Shown one piece after another: positions 5,728-27,044 of a stretch of 53,702 nt of DNA. The notes under the pieces were generated by a model. The model searched no databases. It had not been told where the DNA came from and saw nothing but the letters and a program-made list of their open reading frames with translations. Numbering within the stretch: the first letter of the stretch is position 1; every line of letters starts with the position of its first letter. The stretch is from an uncultured Clostridia bacterium (GTDB lineage: Bacteria > Bacillota > Clostridia > Christensenellales > CAG-138): assembly GCA_905235205.1 (NCBI GenBank), contig CAJOKM010000003.1:1-53702 (forward strand). Reading direction: 5' to 3'. Both the position numbers and the translations under genes were made by a program.

Positions 5728-5734
5728 AAACCTT

Positions 5735-5968
5735 GCGTTGAAGGTGTGAAGTACCGTCCGAACGCAGTCGAAAGAGAGCCTCCGCCGCGGCTGAAAGCGG
5801 AGGAACAGAGCACGGACAGGGAAGGTTCGGCACCGGAGCATCTCCGTTTCGGAGCGCTGCCCCGCGTTATCGGGGAAATTGAGAGAAGGGAAAGAATCCC
5901 TTAATTTGGGTGGTACCGCGGAAACAGGGTTTTTCGTCCCATGCGTTTGCATGGGGCGTTTATTTTTT
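5735..5968 (+). promoter_or_regulatory. T-box riboswitch, Phe specifier
   Basis: AGTA, AGAGA and GCTGA stem I motifs; GAA then specifier TTC (5826-5828); T-box AATTTGGGTGGTACCGCG (5903-5920); terminator cgtcccatgc/gcatggggcg plus T-run (5935-5968); upstream of pheS. Confidence 0.93.
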
Positions 5969-5983
5969 GCAAGGAGGACGGAA

Positions 5984-7009
5984 ATGGACAATAGGATCCA
6001 ACGGCTGCGCGAGCAGTTTTTAGAAAACCTGCAGCGCGCGAACGCCGCGGAGGCGTTTGAAGAGCTGCGCGTTCAGTATCTCGGCAAGAAAGGCGAGATC
6101 ACGGGACTTTTGAAGAATATGGCTTCGATCGAGCCCGAACGGCGCAAGGAGTACGGCGCGCTGGTGAACCAGCTCAAGGAGGAAGCCGAAAACGGCATCA
6201 AAAAACGCATGGAGGAGGCGCACGCGCGTGAGCTGAACGCGCGCATCGCGGCGACCGAGCGGTACGATCTGACGCTTCCGAGCATGGTGCGGCAGGGCAG
6301 TTATCATCCGATCACGCTTGTGCAGCGCGAGGTCGAGCAGATCTTTGCGTCGATGGGCTTCACGATCGAGGACTACGACGAGATCGTCGACGACTACCAC
6401 TGCTTCGAGGCGCTGAACATCCCGAAGCACCACCCCGCGCGCGATATGCAGGATACGTATTATCTTTCGAACGGACAGCTACTAAAGACGCACACCTCCG
6501 CCGCGCAGAACGCGATCATGAAAAAGTACGGCGCGCCGCTTCGCGCGATCTTTCCGGGACGGTGCTTCAGAAACGAGAGTACCGACGCCTGCCACGAAAA
6601 CACGTTCTTCCAGATGGAAGGCATCATGATCGACGAGAACATCTCGATCTCGAACCTGATCTACTTCATGAAGACGATGCTCTCCGAGGTCTTCCAGCGC
6701 GACGTCAAGGTGCGGCTGCGTCCGGGCTTCTTCCCGTTTGTCGAGCCGGGGTTTGAGCTCGATATCTCGTGCCTGATCTGCGGCGGCGAAGGCTGTCCGT
6801 CATGCAAGAACAGCGGCTGGCTCGAACTGTGTCCCTGCGGCATGATCCATCCGAACGTGCTGAAGGCCGGCGGCATCGACACCGAGAAGTACACGGGCTT
6901 CGCGTTCGGGCTGGGCTTGACGCGGCTTGCGATGATGAAGTACGGGATCAAGGACATCCGCGACCTGAACAGCGGGAATCTGAAATCCCTCGACCAATTC
7001 GTGAAGTAA
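5984..7009 (+). CDS. pheS: Phenylalanine--tRNA ligase alpha subunit
   Basis: HPARDMQDT, FFPFVEP and GFAFGLG motifs; SD AAGGAGG before ATG 5984. Confidence 0.97.
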   Translation: MDNRIQRLREQFLENLQRANAAEAFEELRVQYLGKKGEITGLLKNMASIEPERRKEYGALVNQLKEEAENGIKKRMEEAHARELNARIAATERYDLTLPSMVRQGSYHPITLVQREVEQIFASMGFTIEDYDEIVDDYHCFEALNIPKHHPARDMQDTYYLSNGQLLKTHTSAAQNAIMKKYGAPLRAIFPGRCFRNESTDACHENTFFQMEGIMIDENISISNLIYFMKTMLSEVFQRDVKVRLRPGFFPFVEPGFELDISCLICGGEGCPSCKNSGWLELCPCGMIHPNVLKAGGIDTEKYTGFAFGLGLTRLAMMKYGIKDIRDLNSGNLKSLDQFVK

Positions 7010-7021
7010 GGAGGAAGAGCC

Positions 7022-9382
7022 ATGAACGTTTCCATGAACTGGATCTCCGAATACGTGGACCTTACGGGTCTCGATCGGGAGGAGCTGATCCGCCGCTTCA
7101 CGCTGTCCACCGCCGAGGTGGAGGAGGTCTATCATTACGGTACGGAGATCAACGGCGTACTCGTCGCCGAGATCACAAAGATCGACGAGCATCCGAACTC
7201 GAAAAAACTGCATCTTCTTGAACTGAACCTCGGCGATCACACCGATCGGTGCGTATGCGGCGCGCCCAACGTGCGCGTCGGCATGCGCGTTCCGTTTGCG
7301 CCGCTCGGCGCGTCGGTCAAGGGCATGACGATCGGCGAAGCCACGATCGCGGGCGTGAAGTCGTGCGGCATGTGCTGCTCGGCGGCGGAGCTCGGCATTG
7401 CGGACGCGTCTTCGGGTCTTCTGGAACTGCCCGCGGATGCGCCGCTCGGGAAAGCGGTCAAGGATCTGTACGCGTTTGACGATATCGTGTTCGAGGTGGA
7501 CAACAAGTCGCTGACCAACCGTCCCGATCTGTGGGGACACTACGGCATCGCGCGCGAGTTTTCCGCGATCGCGAAGCGTCCGTTAAAGCCGCTCGCGCTC
7601 GATGATCTTACGAAGTACGACGCGCTCGATCCGGTGCCGCTCGGCGGCATTGACGGCGAGCTGTGCTACCGCTATTCCGCGATTCGCGCGGATGGCATTA
7701 CAAAGACGGTGAGCCCGATCGACATGCAGATCCGGCTCTACTACTGCGGCATGCGCGCGATCTCGCTTTTAGCCGATCTGACCAACTACGTCATGCTCGA
7801 GCTCGGGCAGCCGACGCATGCATTCGATTCGCGCAAGGTCGGCACGATCGGCGTACAGCGCTATCCCGAGCCGTTCCTGTTCAAAACGCTCGACGGCACG
7901 GAGCGCAGGATCGATCCCGAAACGCTGATGATCACCAGCGACGGCAATCCCGTCGCGGTCGCGGGCGTGATGGGCGGCGAGAACAGCGAGATCGTCGCCG
8001 ATACGGATTCGGTCACGCTCGAATGCGCGACGTTTTCGGCGGTCTCGGTGCGCAAGACCTCAAGCCGGATCGGATTACGGACCGACGCAAGCATGCGCTA
8101 TGAAAAGACGCTCGACCCGGAGCTTTGCAAGGCTGCCGCGGCGCGGTTTTTGAACCTGCTGCTTTCGATCGATCCGGGCGCGAAGGTAATGAGCCGCTAT
8201 ACCGACTGCTACCAATACCGCTATCCGGACATCGATCTGCACTTTACAAAGGCGTTTGTCGACCGCTACACCGGCATCGACATCTGTGACGCGCAGATCG
8301 AGGACACGCTGACACGACTCGGCTTCGAAGTCCGGCGCGACGGCGCGGCGTTCGACGTGAAGGTCCCGTCGTGGCGCGCGACCAAGGACGTCACGATCCC
8401 GGCGGACGTGATCGAGGAGATCACGCGCATCTACGGCTACGACAACTTCAACATCGAAACGACGATGAGCGCGTTAAAACCCGTCCTGCCGCAGCAGGGC
8501 AAGGCGGACGAAGCGGCGGTAAAGGACGCGCTGGTCAAATCGTTCGGACTGCACGAGGTGCATACCTATCTGTGGTGCGACGCGAAAAAGCTCAACGAGC
8601 TGAAGATCCCCGTGCCCGAGAACGTATCGCTTTTAAACGGCATGAATCCGGACACGACGGTGCTTCGAACGGCGATGATGCATACGCTTCTGCCCGTGCT
8701 TCGCGAAAACCGCTTCTACGCGCCTGCGTTCGGCATCTTTGAGATCGGCAGAACGGTCAAAGGCGTCAAGCCCGACGGCACCGCGAACGAGCGCAGAACG
8801 CTCGGCGTCGCGCTGCTCTCGCATGACAAGGAGCGCACGGCGTTCCTCGGCGCGCGCGATATGATCGCGTCGATCCTTTACGATCTTCGCCGCAAACAGC
8901 CGACGTTTACGCGGATCGAGCCGATCAATGCGTGGGAGCACCCCGCAAACACCGCGGCGATCGTGCTTGACGGCAAGCAAATCGGCACCATGAGTACCGT
9001 GCATCCCGAAATCGCCGCGCAGATCGATAAGAAAGCCGCGCTTGTAACGCTCGAGCTCGATATGGACGCGCTTGCGGAGATCCCCGGCGACGAACTCACA
9101 TACCGCGAGCCGTCGCGCTTCCCGGGCATCGATATCGACCTGAGCTTTGTCGTCGATAAAGACGTGACGTTCGCGGACGTGACGCGTCCGTTCTACGCGG
9201 ACCGCGACGAAACGCTTTCGGACATCACGCTTGTGGATATCTACGAAGCGGAGGGCAAGAGCCTGACGATCCGGCTCTCGTTCGTGTCGCAGGTCAAAAC
9301 CCTGCAGAAGCAGGAGGTGCAGGCGTATATCGACCGCATCCTCGACGTACTGGCAAAAGAGAACATCCGGCTGCGCGCATAA
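7022..9382 (+). CDS. pheT: Phenylalanine--tRNA ligase beta subunit
   Basis: VCGAPNV, NRPDLW and DVIEEITRIYGY motifs; follows pheS. Confidence 0.97.
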   Translation: MNVSMNWISEYVDLTGLDREELIRRFTLSTAEVEEVYHYGTEINGVLVAEITKIDEHPNSKKLHLLELNLGDHTDRCVCGAPNVRVGMRVPFAPLGASVKGMTIGEATIAGVKSCGMCCSAAELGIADASSGLLELPADAPLGKAVKDLYAFDDIVFEVDNKSLTNRPDLWGHYGIAREFSAIAKRPLKPLALDDLTKYDALDPVPLGGIDGELCYRYSAIRADGITKTVSPIDMQIRLYYCGMRAISLLADLTNYVMLELGQPTHAFDSRKVGTIGVQRYPEPFLFKTLDGTERRIDPETLMITSDGNPVAVAGVMGGENSEIVADTDSVTLECATFSAVSVRKTSSRIGLRTDASMRYEKTLDPELCKAAAARFLNLLLSIDPGAKVMSRYTDCYQYRYPDIDLHFTKAFVDRYTGIDICDAQIEDTLTRLGFEVRRDGAAFDVKVPSWRATKDVTIPADVIEEITRIYGYDNFNIETTMSALKPVLPQQGKADEAAVKDALVKSFGLHEVHTYLWCDAKKLNELKIPVPENVSLLNGMNPDTTVLRTAMMHTLLPVLRENRFYAPAFGIFEIGRTVKGVKPDGTANERRTLGVALLSHDKERTAFLGARDMIASILYDLRRKQPTFTRIEPINAWEHPANTAAIVLDGKQIGTMSTVHPEIAAQIDKKAALVTLELDMDALAEIPGDELTYREPSRFPGIDIDLSFVVDKDVTFADVTRPFYADRDETLSDITLVDIYEAEGKSLTIRLSFVSQVKTLQKQEVQAYIDRILDVLAKENIRLRA

Positions 9383-16179: not shown

Positions 16180-16229
16180 GCGCATATCAAAAACATTTCG
16201 GAAAGGAGATTGCCTTCGGGCACCATCAA

Positions 16230-17114
16230 ATGGAAGAACAGAAACAACAACAGCAGCCGTCCAAGGGCATGCGCGTATACCGCAAACTGCGCTGGGTCCT
16301 GATCCCGCTGGTCGTGGTCGCCATCGGGTTTTCGGCGTATCGCGTGATCTCGATCTTTACGGAATACCGCGCAAGCGAGCAGGCGTATGAGGCGATCAAC
16401 AACGAGTTTCTCATCGCGCCGCGCACACCGAATCCCGGCGCGTCCGATTCGGTGCCGTATGCGCCGGGCGAACCGGGCCAGCTCAACCCCTACGATCCTT
16501 CGGCGGGCGGCGATCCGCTGGATCCTTCTCAAGACGCGGTATCGCAGGGCATGGCGCCGATCGGCGTCGACTTTGAGCGGCTGCGCGCGGTCAACGACGA
16601 GTGCGTGGGCTGGATCTATATTCCGGATACCAACGTCAGCTTTCCGGTCATGCGGGCGCAGAACAACAGCAAGTACTTAAACCGCCTTCTGGACGGCACC
16701 AGGAACAGCGCGGGCTCGATCTTCATGGATTTTCGCTGCAATCCGGACCTAAGCGATCGCAACATCATTCTGTACGGGCACAACATGAGCAGCGGCGTGA
16801 TGTTTTCACAGCTGAAGAAATACCGCGACAAGGAGTTCTTCCTCGCGCATCAGACCGGCTATTACCTGACGCCGGACGCGGATTACGAGCTTACGATCGT
16901 GGTTTGCAAAACCGTTTCCGCAACCGGAGATGCATACTATCTGTATGAGGACGAAGCAGACTTTGTGAAGTATCTGAAAAGCGCCCGGAGCCACGCGGAT
17001 ATGAAGGTGGAGTTCGAACCGGAGAAAACGGAACAGATCTTTACGCTCTCGACCTGCACCAGCGGCGGGCAAAAGCGGCTTGTGCTGCTTGCGATTCCGA
17101 GGAAGCTCGGCTAA
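16230..17114 (+). CDS. srtB: Class B sortase
   Basis: N-terminal TM anchor; GWIYIPDT, GSIFMD, ILYGHNM, catalytic TLSTC and downstream Arg. Confidence 0.9.
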   Translation: MEEQKQQQQPSKGMRVYRKLRWVLIPLVVVAIGFSAYRVISIFTEYRASEQAYEAINNEFLIAPRTPNPGASDSVPYAPGEPGQLNPYDPSAGGDPLDPSQDAVSQGMAPIGVDFERLRAVNDECVGWIYIPDTNVSFPVMRAQNNSKYLNRLLDGTRNSAGSIFMDFRCNPDLSDRNIILYGHNMSSGVMFSQLKKYRDKEFFLAHQTGYYLTPDADYELTIVVCKTVSATGDAYYLYEDEADFVKYLKSARSHADMKVEFEPEKTEQIFTLSTCTSGGQKRLVLLAIPRKLG

Positions 17115-21603: not shown

Positions 21604-22503
21604 ATGATCGAATATCAGAGGATTACGGAAGAAACCATCTTAGCGCTGAAGCCGTTCTTTTATACCTATGCGTGCGGCATCTGCGACAACACCGTTGGTG
21701 CCGTTTACCAGTGGCGCGACATCTATGTATCGTACTATGCGGTGATCGGCGGTATGCTCTGCATCCGCGCAGGCTACGGCGCGTACGGCGACTGCTATAC
21801 CGTTCCGCTCGGCAGCGGCGATTTCAACGCGGCGTGCGCGGCGAACGAGGCGGACGCAAAGGCGCGCGGCATTCCGCTGCGCTACTGCGTGGCGCCCGCC
21901 TGCGCGCTCCCGTGCCTTCAGGCACGGTACGGAGACCGGATGCGGACGGAGAGCATCCGCGATTGGGCGGACTATATCTACGACGCGGACGCGTTCCGGC
22001 ACTACGCGGGCAAGCAGTTCCATACGCAGAAAAACCACGTGAACCGCTTCTACCGCGATCATCCGAACGCGCAGACCGTGATCGTGACGGACGAAGCGAC
22101 CGGGCGCGCGTGCCTTGCGTTTTTAGACCGGTTCCGCGCGATGCATCCCGAGTTCTCGCCGCTGGAGAAGAACGAGTGGAACGGCGCAAAGGATCTTCTT
22201 CTGCACCGCGACGCGCTGGAACAGACGGCGGTCTGTCTCAAGGACGGAGAGGAGGTCCTCGCGCTTGCGATCGGCGAACGGAAGGACGACATGCTGTTTG
22301 TGCACGTGGAAAAGGCAATGCCGGGCGTGTCCGGCGCGTATCCGGCGATGGCGCAGGCGTTTGTGAACTGCTTTGACGGCGTGCGCTTCATAAACCGCGA
22401 GGATGACGGCGGCGATCCGGGACTCCGGTATTCCAAGCTGAACTACCGTCCCATCGAGCTCAAAGAGAAATACCTCGTCACGATCCGTGACGAAAACGCA
22501 TAA
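21604..22503 (+). CDS. DUF2156 / aminoacyl-transferase-like GNAT-fold protein
   Basis: DYIY, KNHVNRF, VHVEKA, GAYP and INREDDGGDPGLRYSKLNYRP motifs; ATG 6 nt after an extended -10. Confidence 0.8.
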   Translation: MIEYQRITEETILALKPFFYTYACGICDNTVGAVYQWRDIYVSYYAVIGGMLCIRAGYGAYGDCYTVPLGSGDFNAACAANEADAKARGIPLRYCVAPACALPCLQARYGDRMRTESIRDWADYIYDADAFRHYAGKQFHTQKNHVNRFYRDHPNAQTVIVTDEATGRACLAFLDRFRAMHPEFSPLEKNEWNGAKDLLLHRDALEQTAVCLKDGEEVLALAIGERKDDMLFVHVEKAMPGVSGAYPAMAQAFVNCFDGVRFINREDDGGDPGLRYSKLNYRPIELKEKYLVTIRDENA

Positions 22504-22529
22504 AACCTATGGATGAAGGGAGCAAACCA

Positions 22530-23450
22530 ATGAAAAAACCGATTCTTCTGATCATGGCGGCAGGCATGGGCAGCCGCTTCGGCGGGCCCAAGCAGATCGA
22601 ACCGATCGACGAACACGATCACGTCATTTTAGACTTCTCCGTGTTCGACGCGATCCGCGCCGGCTTTGAAAAGGTCGTCGTCATCATTAAAAAAGAGATG
22701 GAAGCAGACTTTGAGGAGCGTGTCGGCAGACGGATTCGTCCGCATGTGAAGCTCGAGTACGCGTTCCAGTCGCTCGACAAGCTTCCGAAAGGCTACGAGA
22801 TCCCAGAGGGACGCGTGAAGCCGTGGGGAACCGCGCACGCGATCCTCTGCGCCAAAGAGCACCTTGACGCGCCGTTTGCCGTGCTGAACGCGGATGATTT
22901 CTACGGCGCGGACGCGTTCCAAAAAATCTATGACTTCTTAAGCGCGCCGCACAGCGAAAGCGAGTACGCGATGGTCGGATACCGGCTGGGCAATACGCTG
23001 TCGGACTACGGTTCCGTCGCGCGCGGCGTGTGCGAGATCGGACCGGACGGCAGGCTCGTTACGCTGACCGAGCGGCTGAAGATCGAAAAGCGCGACGGCG
23101 CGGCCGCGTTCACCGAGGACGACGGCGAGACTTTTACGCCGCTTGCGCTGGATACGCTTGTTTCGATGAACCTGTTCGGGCTGCAGCAGACCGTGCTCGA
23201 CGCGTTTGAAAAGCGCTTCCCGCCGTTTTTGGACGAGAATCTGCCCAAGAACCCCTTAAAGTGCGAATACCTGCTGCCGCGCGTGCTCGACGCCATGATG
23301 CAGGAGGGCAAAATCAGCATCGAAGTGCTCGCAACCACCGCGCGCTGGCACGGCGTCACGAACCGTCCCGACCTGCCGCTTCTCAAGGAAGCGATCCGCA
23401 GCATGAAGGATCAGGGACTGTATCCGGACGAACTCTGGAAGGAAAACTGA
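22530..23450 (+). CDS. Sugar-phosphate nucleotidyltransferase family protein
   Basis: MAAGMGSRFGGPKQ, KPWGTAHA and NADDFYG motifs. Confidence 0.88.
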   Translation: MKKPILLIMAAGMGSRFGGPKQIEPIDEHDHVILDFSVFDAIRAGFEKVVVIIKKEMEADFEERVGRRIRPHVKLEYAFQSLDKLPKGYEIPEGRVKPWGTAHAILCAKEHLDAPFAVLNADDFYGADAFQKIYDFLSAPHSESEYAMVGYRLGNTLSDYGSVARGVCEIGPDGRLVTLTERLKIEKRDGAAAFTEDDGETFTPLALDTLVSMNLFGLQQTVLDAFEKRFPPFLDENLPKNPLKCEYLLPRVLDAMMQEGKISIEVLATTARWHGVTNRPDLPLLKEAIRSMKDQGLYPDELWKEN

Positions 23451-23468
23451 CCGTTTGAAAAACGGGGC

Positions 23469-23497
23469 TTGACAAAGAGAACGGAATCATATACTAT
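23469..23497 (+). promoter_or_regulatory. Sigma-A promoter of the cys leader and cysK-cysE
   Basis: TTGACA, 17 nt, TACTAT. Confidence 0.8.
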
Positions 23498-23524
23498 ATA
23501 TGAAAACACGGGAAGGAGAAACAG

Positions 23525-23599
23525 ATGGGTAAGGCGATCCAAAACCGCAAAGCATGTTGTTGCGCTTGTTTTGTCATGCCCGTTTGTGTTTCCGGATAG
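23525..23599 (+). CDS. Putative cysteine-rich leader peptide MGKAIQNRKACCCACFVMPVCVSG (24 aa)
   Basis: SD AAGGAG (23513-23518) 6 nt before the ATG; 5 Cys codons including TGT TGT TGC; lies between the promoter and a terminator upstream of cysK. Confidence 0.8.
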   Translation: MGKAIQNRKACCCACFVMPVCVSG

Positions 23600-23613
23600 G
23601 GGTTTTACGCTGC

Positions 23614-23649
23614 AACCGGAAGGCCGACGGGCTTTCCGGTTTTTTCTTT
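23614..23649 (+). terminator. Attenuator terminator in the cysK leader
   Basis: Stem aaccggaaggcc / ggctttccggtt (one G-U), loop gacg, tail ttttcttt; the 5' arm can alternatively pair with tttccgg (23589-23595). Confidence 0.82.
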
Positions 23650-23696
23650 GTCGCGGAAAACGGGCGCATCACATAATCTGAAAGAGAGGAACGAAC

Positions 23697-24626
23697 ATGA
23701 ACGTATACACATCTGCCGATCAGCTGATCGGAAAAACGCCGCTGCTGGAGCTGCAGCGGCTTGCGCGCGAGGAAGGAGCGGACGCACGGATCCTTGCAAA
23801 GCTGGAGTATTTCAATCCGGCGGGATCGGTCAAGGATCGCATCGCAAAGACGATGATCGACGACGCGGAGCAAAAGGGACTTTTGAAAGCGGGCTCGGTG
23901 CTGATCGAGCCGACGTCCGGCAACACCGGGATCGGGCTTGCGTCCGTCGCGGCGGCGCGCGGATACCGCGTGATCATCGTGATGCCGGAGACGATGAGCA
24001 TCGAGCGCAGGCGGCTGATGCAGGCGTACGGCGCGGAACTGGTGCTGACCGACGGCGCGTCGGGCATGAAGGGTGCGATCGCGCGCGCGGAGGAGCTGGC
24101 GCGGGAGATTCCGGACGCATTGATCCCGGAGCAGTTTAAAAACCCCGCCAATCCCGAAGCGCACCGTACCGGCACGGGACCGGAGATCTGGGCGGACACG
24201 GACGGGCAGGTGGATCTGTTCGTGGCGGGCGTCGGCACGGGCGGAACGATCACCGGCGTCGGCGCATACCTGAAAGCGCAGAACCCGAACGTGCGCGTCG
24301 TCGCGGTCGAGCCCGCCGGCTCGCCGGTTCTGAGCCAAGGCGTTGCCGGCGCGCATAAGATCCAGGGGATCGGCGCGGGTTTCGTGCCGGAGATCCTCGA
24401 TACGGCGGTGTACGACGAGGTGATCGCCGTGGAGAACGACGACGCGTTCAAAACGGCGCGAACGATCGGGCGCACGGAGGGGATCCTGGTCGGCATCTCG
24501 TCCGGCGCGGCGGCATGGGCGGCGATCAGGCTCGCGAAGCGACCGGAGAACCGCGGAAAAACCATCGTGGTTCTGCTCCCGGACAGCGGCGACCGCTATC
24601 TGTCCACGGCGTTGTTCGAGGCGTGA
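23697..24626 (+). CDS. cysK: Cysteine synthase A
   Basis: [12 protein letters not shown] lysine; [15 protein letters not shown] and HKIQGIG motifs. Confidence 0.97.
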
Positions 24627-24627
24627 G

Positions 24628-25503
24628 ATGAAACGGAAGGCAAAACAGGCGGCGCTGGATGCAGCGCAGGCATTACAAGCGGAAAGCGCTCAAAACACGC
24701 AGACGGACTTTCGCGGGTTCAGGCGCCGCGCGGAGCGCATGACGGACTGCGTGATCGACGCAATGTTTCCGCGGCACGCAAAAACTCCGGCTGCGCCGAA
24801 GCGGATGCTTCGGGAGGCGTCGAAGCATCTTGTGCGGTGTCTTTCCACCGTACTGAGCGACGCGGACAGGGCGGAAGCGATCGCAGGAACGTTTTTCGGC
24901 GCGCTGCCCGAGGTGTTCGGAATGCTCCGCGCCGATCTTGAAGCGGCGTACCGCGGCGATCCCGCGGCGCACAGCGTGGACGAGATCATTCTCTGCTATC
25001 CGGCGTTTTTTGCGATCTGCACCTACCGGCTGGCGCACGTGCTGTACCGGGCGGGCGTTCCGCTGCTGCCGCGCGTGATGACGGAATACGCGCACCAAAA
25101 AACCGGGATCGACATCCATCCCGGCGCGCAGATCGGCGAGGAGTTCTTTATCGATCACGGAACCGGCGTCGTCATCGGGGAAACGTGCACCATCGGAAGG
25201 AACGTCAAGATCTACCAGCATGTGACGCTCGGCGCAAAGAGCTTCAACGTCGACGGGAGCGGCGCGCTCGTCAAGGGGATCAAGCGGCATCCCGACATCG
25301 GCGATCGTGTGGTCATCTATTCCGGCGCGACGATCCTCGGCGGCGAGACACAGATCGGGAACGACTGCATCATCGGCGGCAGCGTGTGGCTGACGCATTC
25401 GGTGGAGGCGGGGAAGATGGTGCTTGCGCGCTCGACGGTCACCGACGCGCCGCTCACGCGTGACGTTATGCACGCGTCGGTTCTGGACAGCGCTCTGCTG
25501 TAA
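24628..25503 (+). CDS. cysE: Serine O-acetyltransferase (EpsC-type)
   Basis: GDPAA, TGIDIHPGA, FIDHGTGVVIGET and KRHP hexapeptide motifs; 1 nt after cysK. Confidence 0.92.
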   Translation: MKRKAKQAALDAAQALQAESAQNTQTDFRGFRRRAERMTDCVIDAMFPRHAKTPAAPKRMLREASKHLVRCLSTVLSDADRAEAIAGTFFGALPEVFGMLRADLEAAYRGDPAAHSVDEIILCYPAFFAICTYRLAHVLYRAGVPLLPRVMTEYAHQKTGIDIHPGAQIGEEFFIDHGTGVVIGETCTIGRNVKIYQHVTLGAKSFNVDGSGALVKGIKRHPDIGDRVVIYSGATILGGETQIGNDCIIGGSVWLTHSVEAGKMVLARSTVTDAPLTRDVMHASVLDSALL

Positions 25504-25546
25504 AAAAAGCGTATCGCCGCGGTTGCGATACGCTTTCATTTTGTTT
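25502..25546. terminator. Bidirectional terminator between cysE and the MATE gene
   Basis: aaagcgtatcgc / gcgatacgcttt 12-bp stem (25506-25536) with an A-run before and a T-rich tail after. Confidence 0.8.
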
Positions 25547-27044
25547 ATTCGTTGCTCGGCGCAGGCTCGTCCAGCGGCTTGATCTTTTTCCGATAGAGCC
25601 TTCGGAACAGCAGGGAAGCGACGATCAGCGTAAGGAACTCGGCGATCGGGAACGCCCACCAGATGCCGTCGACGTCCTTGGTGAGCCACGCAAGCAGCGC
25701 GGCGATGGGCAGCAGCACAATGAGCTGGCGCTGAAGCGAAATGATCGCGCCGTACAGACTCGTGTCGGTCGCGCCGAACGCGGTGGAGAACGAGACGCCC
25801 GCCGCGGCGAACACGAAGCCGAGCGAAATGATCCTGAGCGCGCGGTCGGCGACGTCGCGCAGCGCCTGCGTCACGTCAAAGAGGTGCATCAGCGGATCGG
25901 CGAAGAACTGGAACAGCAGCGTGCCGAAGATCATAAACACGCAGCAGAAGATCAGAAGCATTTTGAACGCGCGCAAGAAGCGCTTGCGGTTTCTGGAACC
26001 GAAGTTGTAGCCGAGCACGCTCATCGCCGCGTTGGTCAGTCCGAACACCGGCATAAAGATGATCGACTGCAGCTTGAAATAGGTGCCGAACGCGCCGACG
26101 TACAGGTTCGGGAAATCGCCGGCCGCGTCGATCGTTTTGAGATGATACTCGCCGAGCGTTTTCAGAATGGTGTTCATGCCGAACATCATGATCGTACCGA
26201 CCGCCTGCATCAGAATCGACGGAAGCCCCACGCGGTAGATCTCATAGACGGTTTTCCGGTTCAGTCTGCAGTCCGAAAGGCCGATATGGATCTCGTGCTT
26301 TGCCGTAAAGAGCAGAATGAACGCGAGGATCATCGAGGCGAACTGTCCCGCGACCGTAGCGATCGCGGCGCCCTTGACGCCCATCGCGGGGACGGGGCCG
26401 AGACCCAGCACGAACACGCGGTCTAAGAAGATATTGACGATCGCGCCGCAAAGCTGCATCAGCATGGCGAACACGGTCCTGCCCTGCGCGGTCATGATGC
26501 GTTCGATGCCGCATGCGAGAAACACGCCGACACACAGGCTTAAGCAGATGGTCATATAGTTCGTGCCCATCAGCTGCACGACGGGATCCGCGCTCTGCCA
26601 CTGCATGAACGCCTTTGACAGCGTCAGTCCGGCAACGGTGAACACCGCCGCGGAGAGTACGAGCACGATCAAACCGTTGCCCGCCGCGCGGTTCGCGTCC
26701 TCAAAGCGTTTCGCGCCGAGCCGCCGTGAAATCAGCGAGTTGATGCCGACCGACGTGCCGACCGCAACCGAGATCATCAGCATCTGCAGCGGATACACGA
26801 GCGACAGCGCGGAAAGCGCTTTGTCGCCGATATGTCCGACGATCTCCGCCTGATAGAGATCGCCGAGGATGCGGCTGAGCACTTCGGGCGCAAGGGAATC
26901 CATGCGCGACACGAATACGCTGTCGACAATGTTGTACAGCGCCTGCACGAGCATAGAGACGATGATGGGCCAGCCCATCGAAAGGAGCAGCCGCCCTTCC
27001 GGCGCCGTTCCCATTTTGTTTTGTCGAATTGTTGGTTGTTCCAT
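25545..27044 (-). CDS. MATE family efflux transporter
   Basis: PIIVSMLVQALYNIVDS, NIFLD..F and MGVKGAAIATV motifs; multiple TM segments. Confidence 0.93.
   Translation of the reverse strand: MEQPTIRQNKMGTAPEGRLLLSMGWPIIVSMLVQALYNIVDSVFVSRMDSLAPEVLSRILGDLYQAEIVGHIGDKALSALSLVYPLQMLMISVAVGTSVGINSLISRRLGAKRFEDANRAAGNGLIVLVLSAAVFTVAGLTLSKAFMQWQSADPVVQLMGTNYMTICLSLCVGVFLACGIERIMTAQGRTVFAMLMQLCGAIVNIFLDRVFVLGLGPVPAMGVKGAAIATVAGQFASMILAFILLFTAKHEIHIGLSDCRLNRKTVYEIYRVGLPSILMQAVGTIMMFGMNTILKTLGEYHLKTIDAAGDFPNLYVGAFGTYFKLQSIIFMPVFGLTNAAMSVLGYNFGSRNRKRFLRAFKMLLIFCCVFMIFGTLLFQFFADPLMHLFDVTQALRDVADRALRIISLGFVFAAAGVSFSTAFGATDTSLYGAIISLQRQLIVLLPIAALLAWLTKDVDGIWWAFPIAEFLTLIVASLLFRRLYRKKIKPLDEPAPSNE

Follow-up and report, generated by a model that had tools for sequence, protein, structure and literature searches.

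A putative cysteine leader-peptide attenuator upstream of cysK and a cysE-like gene in uncultured rumen Clostridia

The 53,702-nucleotide (nt) stretch of contig CAJOKM010000003.1 analysed here (the window; assembly GCA_905235205.1 of an uncultured Clostridia bacterium, genome G000) carries a cysteine synthase gene, cysK, followed by a serine O-acetyltransferase-like gene that begins 2 nt past the cysK stop codon. Ahead of cysK lies a leader region in which a promoter, a Shine-Dalgarno (SD) sequence, a short upstream open reading frame (uORF) with a CCC-A-C cluster of cysteines, and an intrinsic terminator are packed, up to cysK itself, within 230 nt. We propose, with a probability of roughly 85%, that this region acts as a ribosome-mediated transcription attenuator of the trp/his type, specific for cysteine and controlling both genes; the proposal draws on sequence comparison and on modelled RNA folds. 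The leader is a real, conserved feature and very probably functional.

The leader region and its alternative structures

The features of the locus are collected in Table 1. The promoter, the SD sequence, the 24-codon uORF and the terminator, all proposed in an initial annotation made from the sequence alone, can be read directly in the DNA, and the TTGACA/TACTAT pair is the top promoter-like site in a promoter scan of positions 22400-25800. Thus placed, the uORF has its own ribosome-binding site and start codon, and it is not leaderless, as the promoter hexamers lie ~28 nt upstream of its ATG.

Table 1. Features of the cysK leader and operon in the window
Feature	Position	Strand	Remarks
-35 hexamer TTGACA	23469-23474	+	read directly in sequence
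Alternative -10 hexamer TATACT	23490-23495	+	aligns with the -10 of relatives
-10 hexamer TACTAT	23492-23497	+	17-nt spacer from TTGACA; sigma-70-type
SD AAGGAG	23513-23518	+	6 nt ahead of ATG 23525; GGAG paired in P1
Region 1, 5' arm of hairpin P1 (anti-antiterminator)	23515-23537	+	over SD and start codon
Leader ORF	23525-23599	+	24 codons, MGKAIQNRKACCCACFVMPVCVSG; stop TAG 23597-23599
Cys codons of the uORF	TGT 23555, TGT 23558, TGC 23561, TGT 23567, TGT 23585	+	
Cys cluster	23555-23569	+	codons 11-13 (TGT TGT TGC) and codon 15 (TGT); proposed stalling site
Region 2, 3' arm of P1	23571-23593	+	
Antiterminator (predicted)	23578-23632	+	23578-84/23626-32, 23586-87/23623-24, 23590-95/23616-21
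Intrinsic terminator	23614-23649	+	stem 23614-25/23630-41, loop GACG, T-run 23642-49
cysK (cysteine synthase A), first regulated gene	23697-24626	+	TIGR01139, 462.6 bits (cut-off 350.95); Pfam PALP
Serine O-acetyltransferase-like gene (CysE/EpsC type)	24628-25503	+	Pfam Hexapep and SATase_N
Terminator-like hairpin at the end of the cysK-cysE operon	25506-25536	+	

The uORF stands out by its cysteine codons. As the initial annotation had noted, four of the five are TGT, the opposite of the local usage: the 32 long ORFs of the window contain 207 TGC vs 36 TGT codons. At a Cys frequency of 1.6%, the chance of finding at least five cysteines in 23 codons is ~3e-5. Among the small ORFs of 15-40 amino acids starting with ATG on both strands of the window, only 2 of 326 contain CCC; the second, a CCCC-containing ORF at 16226-16324 on the minus strand that ends in GCCCCFCSSI, has no evident SD in its flanking sequence and was judged a chance occurrence. 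Genome-wide, 18 SD-led small ORFs contain CC, and the leader ORF alone combines CCC with a downstream T-run.

The terminator separates the leader ORF from the first structural gene. Its stem has 12 pairs, seven of them G-C, directly followed by TTTTTTCTTT; the distance from the end of the T-run (23649) to the cysK ATG (23697) is 47 nt. The structure that would be regulated is this terminator and not a hairpin over the cysK ribosome-binding site (RBS).

Two further structures compete with each other and with the terminator. The long hairpin P1, formed by regions 1 and 2, sequesters the SD and the start codon of the leader. In the window segment its energy is -33.7 kcal/mol (z -3.68), and none of 200 shuffled sequences folded equally well. 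Bases 23578-84, 23586-87 and 23590-95, mostly from region 2, double as the 5' half of a second structure with 15 pairs in three helices plus a small apical stem (-27.5 kcal/mol, z -3.22; 1 of 200 shuffles equal). Its outer, G+C-rich helix joins the Met-Pro-Val codons to the terminator loop and the start of the terminator 3' arm. As this alternative structure uses up the 5' arm, the loop and the first three 3'-arm bases of the terminator, it is an antiterminator. P1, the antiterminator and the terminator thus emerge from the modelling as three mutually exclusive structures. The initial annotation had pointed out that tttccgg (23589-95), at the end of the uORF, is complementary to ccggaag (23616-22) in the terminator 5' arm. 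The pairing holds, with seven pairs including one G-U, and forms the inner part of the antiterminator; as a description of that structure it was incomplete, missing the outer helix 23578-84/23626-32 and the pairs 23586-87/23623-24.

We then folded the leaders with ribosomes at defined positions. In the stalled state, the second Cys codon was placed in the A site, the RNA was blocked through the A site plus 12 nt, and the transcript ended 6 nt into the terminator 3' arm; in the stop-codon state, the RNA was blocked to 12 nt beyond the stop. Unconstrained, all 17 leaders folded with the terminator, and the 16 class-A leaders formed P1 alongside it. With a ribosome at the Cys cluster and the shortened transcript, the antiterminator formed in 17/17 leaders (-17.9 to -28.8 kcal/mol), and with a ribosome at the stop codon only the terminator did, again in all 17. 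The computation therefore yields an exclusive antiterminator: a ribosome at the stop codon masks its 5' half, and one at the regulatory codons leaves that half free. The two outcomes with a ribosome are those that the initial annotation had expected, and they reproduce its trp/his-type logic, to which the long anti-antiterminator hairpin P1 has to be added. The gap between the stop codon and the terminator stem is 14 nt, which in the model fits a terminating ribosome that masks region 2 and spares the terminator.

The proposed mechanism would operate as follows. Transcription would begin ~20 nt upstream of the leader ORF. If no ribosome translated the leader, region 1 would pair with region 2, the terminator would form and transcription would stop. 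With ample Cys-tRNA(Cys), the ribosome would reach the TAG and cover region 2, its footprint ending shortly ahead of the terminator stem, and the terminator would form as well. When Cys-tRNA(Cys) was scarce, the ribosome would stall when one of codons 11-13 occupied its A site, masking region 1 and leaving the RNA from 23578 onward free. The freed part of region 2 would then pair with the terminator 5' arm, loop and first 3'-arm bases; this antiterminator would block the terminator, and RNA polymerase would continue into cysK-cysE. The only tRNA-Cys found in G000 is one tRNA-Cys(GCA), and the TGT preference of the uORF could serve slower wobble decoding by this single tRNA. It could instead be imposed by RNA structure, as the Cys codons pair within the apical part of P1.

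Several observations concern the surroundings of the leader. The CysE-like gene scores below the cut-offs of both specific models (TIGR01172, 160.5 bits, cut-off 210.65; EpsC, 146.3 bits, cut-off 150). The next gene, encoding a MatE protein (25545-27044), is convergent to cysK-cysE, and the gene upstream of the leader, encoding a nucleotidyltransferase (22509-23450), lies on the same strand as the leader. In the 16 aligned class-A leaders TTGACA is followed by TATACT(ATATA), with the variant L019 deviating; the spacer to the -10 hexamer that aligns with that of the relatives is 2 nt shorter in the window than in them. The -10 region (23488-23500 and the aligned promoters) also contains a conserved (G)TATACTATATA(C), in most relatives a 5-3-5 inverted repeat, which may simply be an extended -10/start region or may be an operator giving a second layer of control.

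Conservation and covariation in the genus

The leader is widespread in the genus of G000. Among 40 relatives searched at the DNA level, 16 of the 24 genomes of the same genus contain the leader region. We read 350 nt ahead of each cysK: 17 loci have a Cys-rich uORF with an SD and a terminator behind it, and four do not. A covariance model built on 16 leaders (R1) placed the leader ahead of cysK in 19 of the 28 genus genomes searched, G000 included; in a twentieth genome, G023, R1 matched at another locus. In addition, we scanned one genome per species, 185,579 species in total, with an exact pattern. Of the 19 matches, 17 came from metagenome-assembled genomes (MAGs) of rumen Clostridia, one of them titled Christensenellales, and each had the uORF and the terminator; cysK was found downstream by tblastn in 16, and the seventeenth locus is cut short so that only the start of cysK is visible. 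The remaining two matches, in other phyla, were chance. The same pattern matched 34 metagenomic contigs, 23 with the leader and 11 by chance. The SD, the Cys-cluster uORF, the terminator and the competing pairing are kept together with cysK in relatives, as the initial annotation would have it.

The leader was not found in five other genera of the family (0/5). In 150 other genomes of the order, R1 gave just weak matches (E 2e-5 to 8e-3, in 15 genomes). At 16 of the 17 matched places outside G000 that we inspected (the uninspected one, L062, is on the minus strand and overlaps L047 in G172), these were ordinary hairpins or terminators, and none was a Cys uORF leader before cysK. Nor was the leader present at the 29 best cysK loci of the order outside G000; 15 of these genes directly follow another coding gene, and two, from genus g5, have a different CC-containing uORF. 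Within G000 itself, which is 78% complete, a motif scan found no second Cys uORF with a terminator, R1 recovered the cysK leader and no other, and no Cys regulon of such leaders was seen. Weak R1 matches on its contigs C11 and C24 proved to be ordinary terminators, the one on C11 lying behind a gene that we take to be rplL-like from its translated C-terminal end alone.

For a closer comparison, 30 distinct leader copies from genomes and rumen metagenomes were aligned (alignment A2). The frame of the uORF and the Cys cluster are kept in all 30, and the stop codon occupies a single column. The sole indel within the uORF is 3 nt long, and in one subgroup, which includes the window, the ATG lies 6 nt further upstream than in the others. 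At least two consecutive codons for cysteine, the amino acid of the downstream operon, occur in 30/30 copies, and no copy departs from TGTTG in the first two Cys codons. Each of the 17 leaders listed has an SD-like purine run ahead of its start codon, and every copy whose uORF was read begins with an ATG behind an SD. At the C-terminus the peptides share the motif (A/V)(M/I/L)P(V/I)C; they contain 4-6 Cys residues, and their N-terminal halves vary freely. The leader stays with cysK, while the gene on its other side changes from locus to locus: in many loci it is divergent, in the window co-directional.

The alignment also supports both sets of pairs. For the antiterminator, 91.2% of the cells in the 30 sequences are paired vs 37-54% after a shift of the partners by 1-3 columns; for P1 and the terminator together, the values are 92.5% vs 30-50%. 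The terminator taken separately has 97.5% of its cells paired and both-side changes in 6 of 11 pairs. The G/A position of the motif CCCG/CCCA is paired in every copy of P1 (C-G in 18, U-A in 6, U-G in 6), and in the antiterminator it forms G-C in 20 copies, A-U in 3 and G-U in 2, being unpaired in 5. As the same position pairs in P1 and in the antiterminator, both alternative partners follow it. At the outer end of the inner antiterminator helix, 15 copies have a C-G pair and 13 a U-A pair, matching the Leu-Gly vs Ser-Gly endings of the peptides.

Alternative explanations and points against the attenuator

The region could instead be a riboregulator that senses a metabolite, a protein or a tRNA and not the position of a ribosome, the ORF being a by-product of structure. 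Parts of the conservation fit such an RNA constraint: a large part of the uORF is conserved at the nucleotide level including third positions, with Pro encoded by CCC in 30/30 copies and TGTTG unchanged, and P1 and the antiterminator fold significantly better than shuffled sequences. Yet no Rfam family matches. Rfam at gathering thresholds gave no family over the whole window, and a permissive scan of 23400-23750 (E up to 10) yielded a nematode snoRNA at E 1.7 as its sole match, which we regard as chance; in the same interval there was no match to the T-box (RF00230), to the SAM riboswitch (S-box) or to any other Rfam riboswitch, in agreement with the initial annotation, which had seen no T-box or S-box motif. 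Moreover, the ~90 nt from the probable transcription start to the terminator are mostly one plain hairpin, while the T-box model spans 219 positions. The ORF also keeps its SD, ATG, frame and stop in all copies, with indels and start shifts in-frame only, and repeats the very codon that corresponds to what the operon makes; and Cys uORFs with terminators, unrelated in sequence, stand before cysK in four other loci of the genus. We therefore consider a riboregulator of this kind unlikely.

The conserved C-terminal motif and the 4-6 cysteines would also suit a functional Cys-rich micropeptide (metal-binding, redox-active, or a precursor of a modified peptide), with the hairpin as only a partial terminator between genes. 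Here, however, the codons of the conserved C-terminus are exactly those whose bases pair in P1 and the antiterminator, and they vary by covariation, not synonymously, whereas the N-terminal half is free to vary. No gene for a modifying enzyme or a transporter is linked to the uORF, cysK being its sole constant neighbour, and unrelated Cys uORFs occupy this place in other species of the genus; this explanation appears very unlikely. Least credible, and already contradicted by the comparison of relatives, is a chance ORF that happens to adjoin the terminator of the nucleotidyltransferase gene upstream. That gene has the same orientation, and the scan scored no further terminator between it and the leader, but a consensus promoter separates it from the uORF, most relatives have a divergent or different upstream gene next to an intact leader, the ORF is conserved in 30 distinct copies, and the probability of five cysteines in 23 codons is ~3e-5. 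All three explanations are disfavoured because the SD, start and frame are conserved, the codon repeated in the uORF stands for the amino acid that the operon makes, the C-terminus of the peptide coincides with the paired bases, and unrelated Cys uORFs occupy the same position elsewhere.

Other points weigh against the attenuator itself. Its support is computational. In full-length RNA with a stalled ribosome, the terminator is present in the minimum-energy fold of 13 of 17 leaders, the window included (-29.2 kcal/mol with the terminator at full length vs -27.5 for the antiterminator in the truncated RNA), and the antiterminator is the outright minimum in just four. The attenuator would therefore depend on kinetic, co-transcriptional folding, as the classical systems do. 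The footprint of the A site plus 12 nt is an assumption borrowed from other bacteria. Covariation is thin, with both-side changes in only 2 of 11 antiterminator pairs; the sequences come from one genus and few clades, so that the counts reflect few independent events; measures based on pair count and pair type were no better than in shuffles; and the slide control is biased towards the tested structure, as this was derived from the very sequences used. Both the TGT bias and the conservation of the C-terminal MPVC codons may reflect RNA pairing and not decoding speed or peptide function. Finally, transcription and translation are reportedly uncoupled in Bacillus subtilis, and if this holds here, classical attenuation would work poorly.

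Related leaders, known systems and significance

Leader-peptide attenuators are classically known from the trp, his, leu, thr, ilv and pheA operons of Proteobacteria. The cysK leader resembles them in having an SD-led short ORF with tandem cognate codons, a 1:2 hairpin, a 2:3 antiterminator, a 3:4 terminator, and a stop codon at which a terminating ribosome would mask region 2. It differs in the amino acid and the host, in the antiterminator, which also uses the terminator loop and the first 3'-arm bases, and in region 1, which includes the SD and start codon of the leader. PMC1262725 and PMC2965389 treat these classical attenuators as background.

Cysteine codons in upstream ORFs have been described in other lineages. 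The polycysteine short ORFs of mycobacteria are leaderless, and a ribosome that stalls at the studied locus exposes the RBS of the gene behind it (Canestrari et al., 10.1101/834739). The common element is a run of Cys codons that senses the supply of Cys-tRNA (as predicted for our leader) and raises the expression of cysteine-metabolism genes; the mycobacterial system acts on translation, whereas the clostridial leader has an SD and a 5' untranslated region, and an intrinsic terminator with an antiterminator. Candidate Cys leaders of Actinobacteria, which precede cys or cbs operons, are likewise short ORFs containing runs of Cys codons; their authors found no conserved terminator hairpins and suggested a role of Rho (Seliverstov et al. 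2005, PMC1262725). By contrast, the intrinsic terminator found here is strong and conserved, and alternative hairpins accompany it. The uORFC-8-2 motif upstream of cysS in Rhodobacterales is another predicted ribosome-mediated attenuator; its tandem Cys codons lie within a stem, and a terminator with a U-run comes next (Brewer et al. 2021, PMC8632094). It differs in belonging to Alphaproteobacteria, in preceding a tRNA synthetase gene and not a biosynthesis gene, and in having two Cys codons, and it bears no sequence relation to the cysK leader.

Among Firmicutes, a leucine-rich attenuator peptide is said to control the branched-chain amino acid operon ilv-leu of Staphylococcus aureus (PMC5794164). 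A His leader upstream of the hisS paralogs hisZ and hisS* in bacilli is described in PMC2965389. Like the cysK leader, these combine an amino-acid leader peptide with a terminator in Gram-positive bacteria, replacing the usual T-box; unlike it, they serve other amino acids and belong to Bacilli, not Clostridia. Cysteine genes of Firmicutes are usually controlled by Cys T-boxes, S-box riboswitches or repression by CymR, of the Rrf2 family. The target genes are the same as here, and the T-box reads the same signal, the supply of cysteine or Cys-tRNA, but no T-box or S-box match is present at the leader. References for the S-box and T-box are given in PMC1262725. Five T-box matches were found in G000, three of them above the cut-off and all outside the leader. 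One of the five, in the window itself (5729-5944, plus strand; 89.5 bits, Rfam cut-off 93), lies upstream of pheS-like (5879-7009) and pheT-like (7022-9382) genes.

Other cysK loci of the genus carry different leaders. In G007, a third leader variant, MMKTARSAMCCTGFVCPLPACVL, with a terminator precedes a second copy of cysK (contig C86, L019/L114); the other cysK copy of this genome has a leader of the main class. In the class-C variant (L132 in G023, L135 in G001, L136 in G003), a different SD-led Cys-containing uORF, e.g. MKRWASRMMSACCMRCICRAPAFL, with a strong terminator is found ~290-210 nt upstream of cysK, followed by a second small ORF with the common residues GFRC. With a stalled ribosome, the minimum-energy folds of these three class-C leaders contained no antiterminator. 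In genus g5 of the same order (L083 in G100, L092 in G069), an SD-led short uORF with a conserved QRCCR lies 40-90 nt upstream of cysK, with no obvious terminator and with a promoter with a palindromic element upstream; a translational Cys sensor acting alongside a repressor site is one possible reading. Three cysK loci of the same genus lack a uORF (L117 in G024, L130 in G175, L134 in G006). In G024 a divergent gene for an Rrf2-family regulator (Pfam, 125.9 bits) adjoins cysK, and in G175 and G006 a palindrome-like element follows the -10, which suggests, from the sequences of these loci, CymR-type control where the leader is absent.

An SD-led uORF rich in Phe and Tyr, followed by a terminator, was also seen upstream of genes in G023 (contig C9, L112) and G022 (contig C10, L183). 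In L183, 7 of 25 residues are aromatic, and the G023 peptide is similarly rich in Phe and Tyr. The gene behind L112 encodes 3-dehydroquinate synthase (Pfam), and the G022 gene resembles the G023 product at its start only. This uORF is probably an aromatic-amino-acid leader peptide. A DNA search did not find it in G000.

It is tempting to suggest, although we hold it somewhat below even odds, that this whole genus of uncultured rumen Clostridia has swapped T-box, S-box and CymR control of cysteine genes for leader-peptide attenuation, and has done so repeatedly. Repeated use is indicated because at least three sequence-unrelated leaders with a Cys uORF and a terminator stand before cysK in different species of the genus, and because the Phe/Tyr-rich uORF with a terminator occurs in two species, preceding a 3-dehydroquinate synthase gene in G023 and a putative one in G022.

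To our knowledge, cysteine is one of the few amino acids without a textbook leader-peptide transcription attenuator. In the open literature we found no cysteine leader-peptide attenuator of Clostridia or other Firmicutes, and the initial annotation likewise knew of no clostridial example; the search extended to neither subscription journals nor supplements, and candidates may be listed in the supplements to PMC2965389 and PMC8632094. The mechanism is an established one, and the novelty, as far as the literature searched goes, is the amino acid and the lineage. Of the known Cys uORFs, those of Actinobacteria have no terminators, those of mycobacteria act on translation, and those for cysS in Alphaproteobacteria are predictions; the cysK locus offers a complete example with three alternative hairpins, conserved with modest covariation, in a class expected to use the T-box, the S-box or CymR. 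At ~150 nt, the leader is a compact, putatively cysteine-responsive RNA part that can be tested as a sensor. It also flags unannotated short ORFs in rumen MAGs as regulatory and not coding, and is a natural test case for the coupling of transcription and translation in Bacillota other than Bacillus. If leader-peptide attenuation has indeed replaced the usual cysteine controls in the genus, the lead ribosome in these Bacillota would have to stay close enough to RNA polymerase to decide termination, in contrast to the uncoupled picture drawn from Bacillus subtilis.

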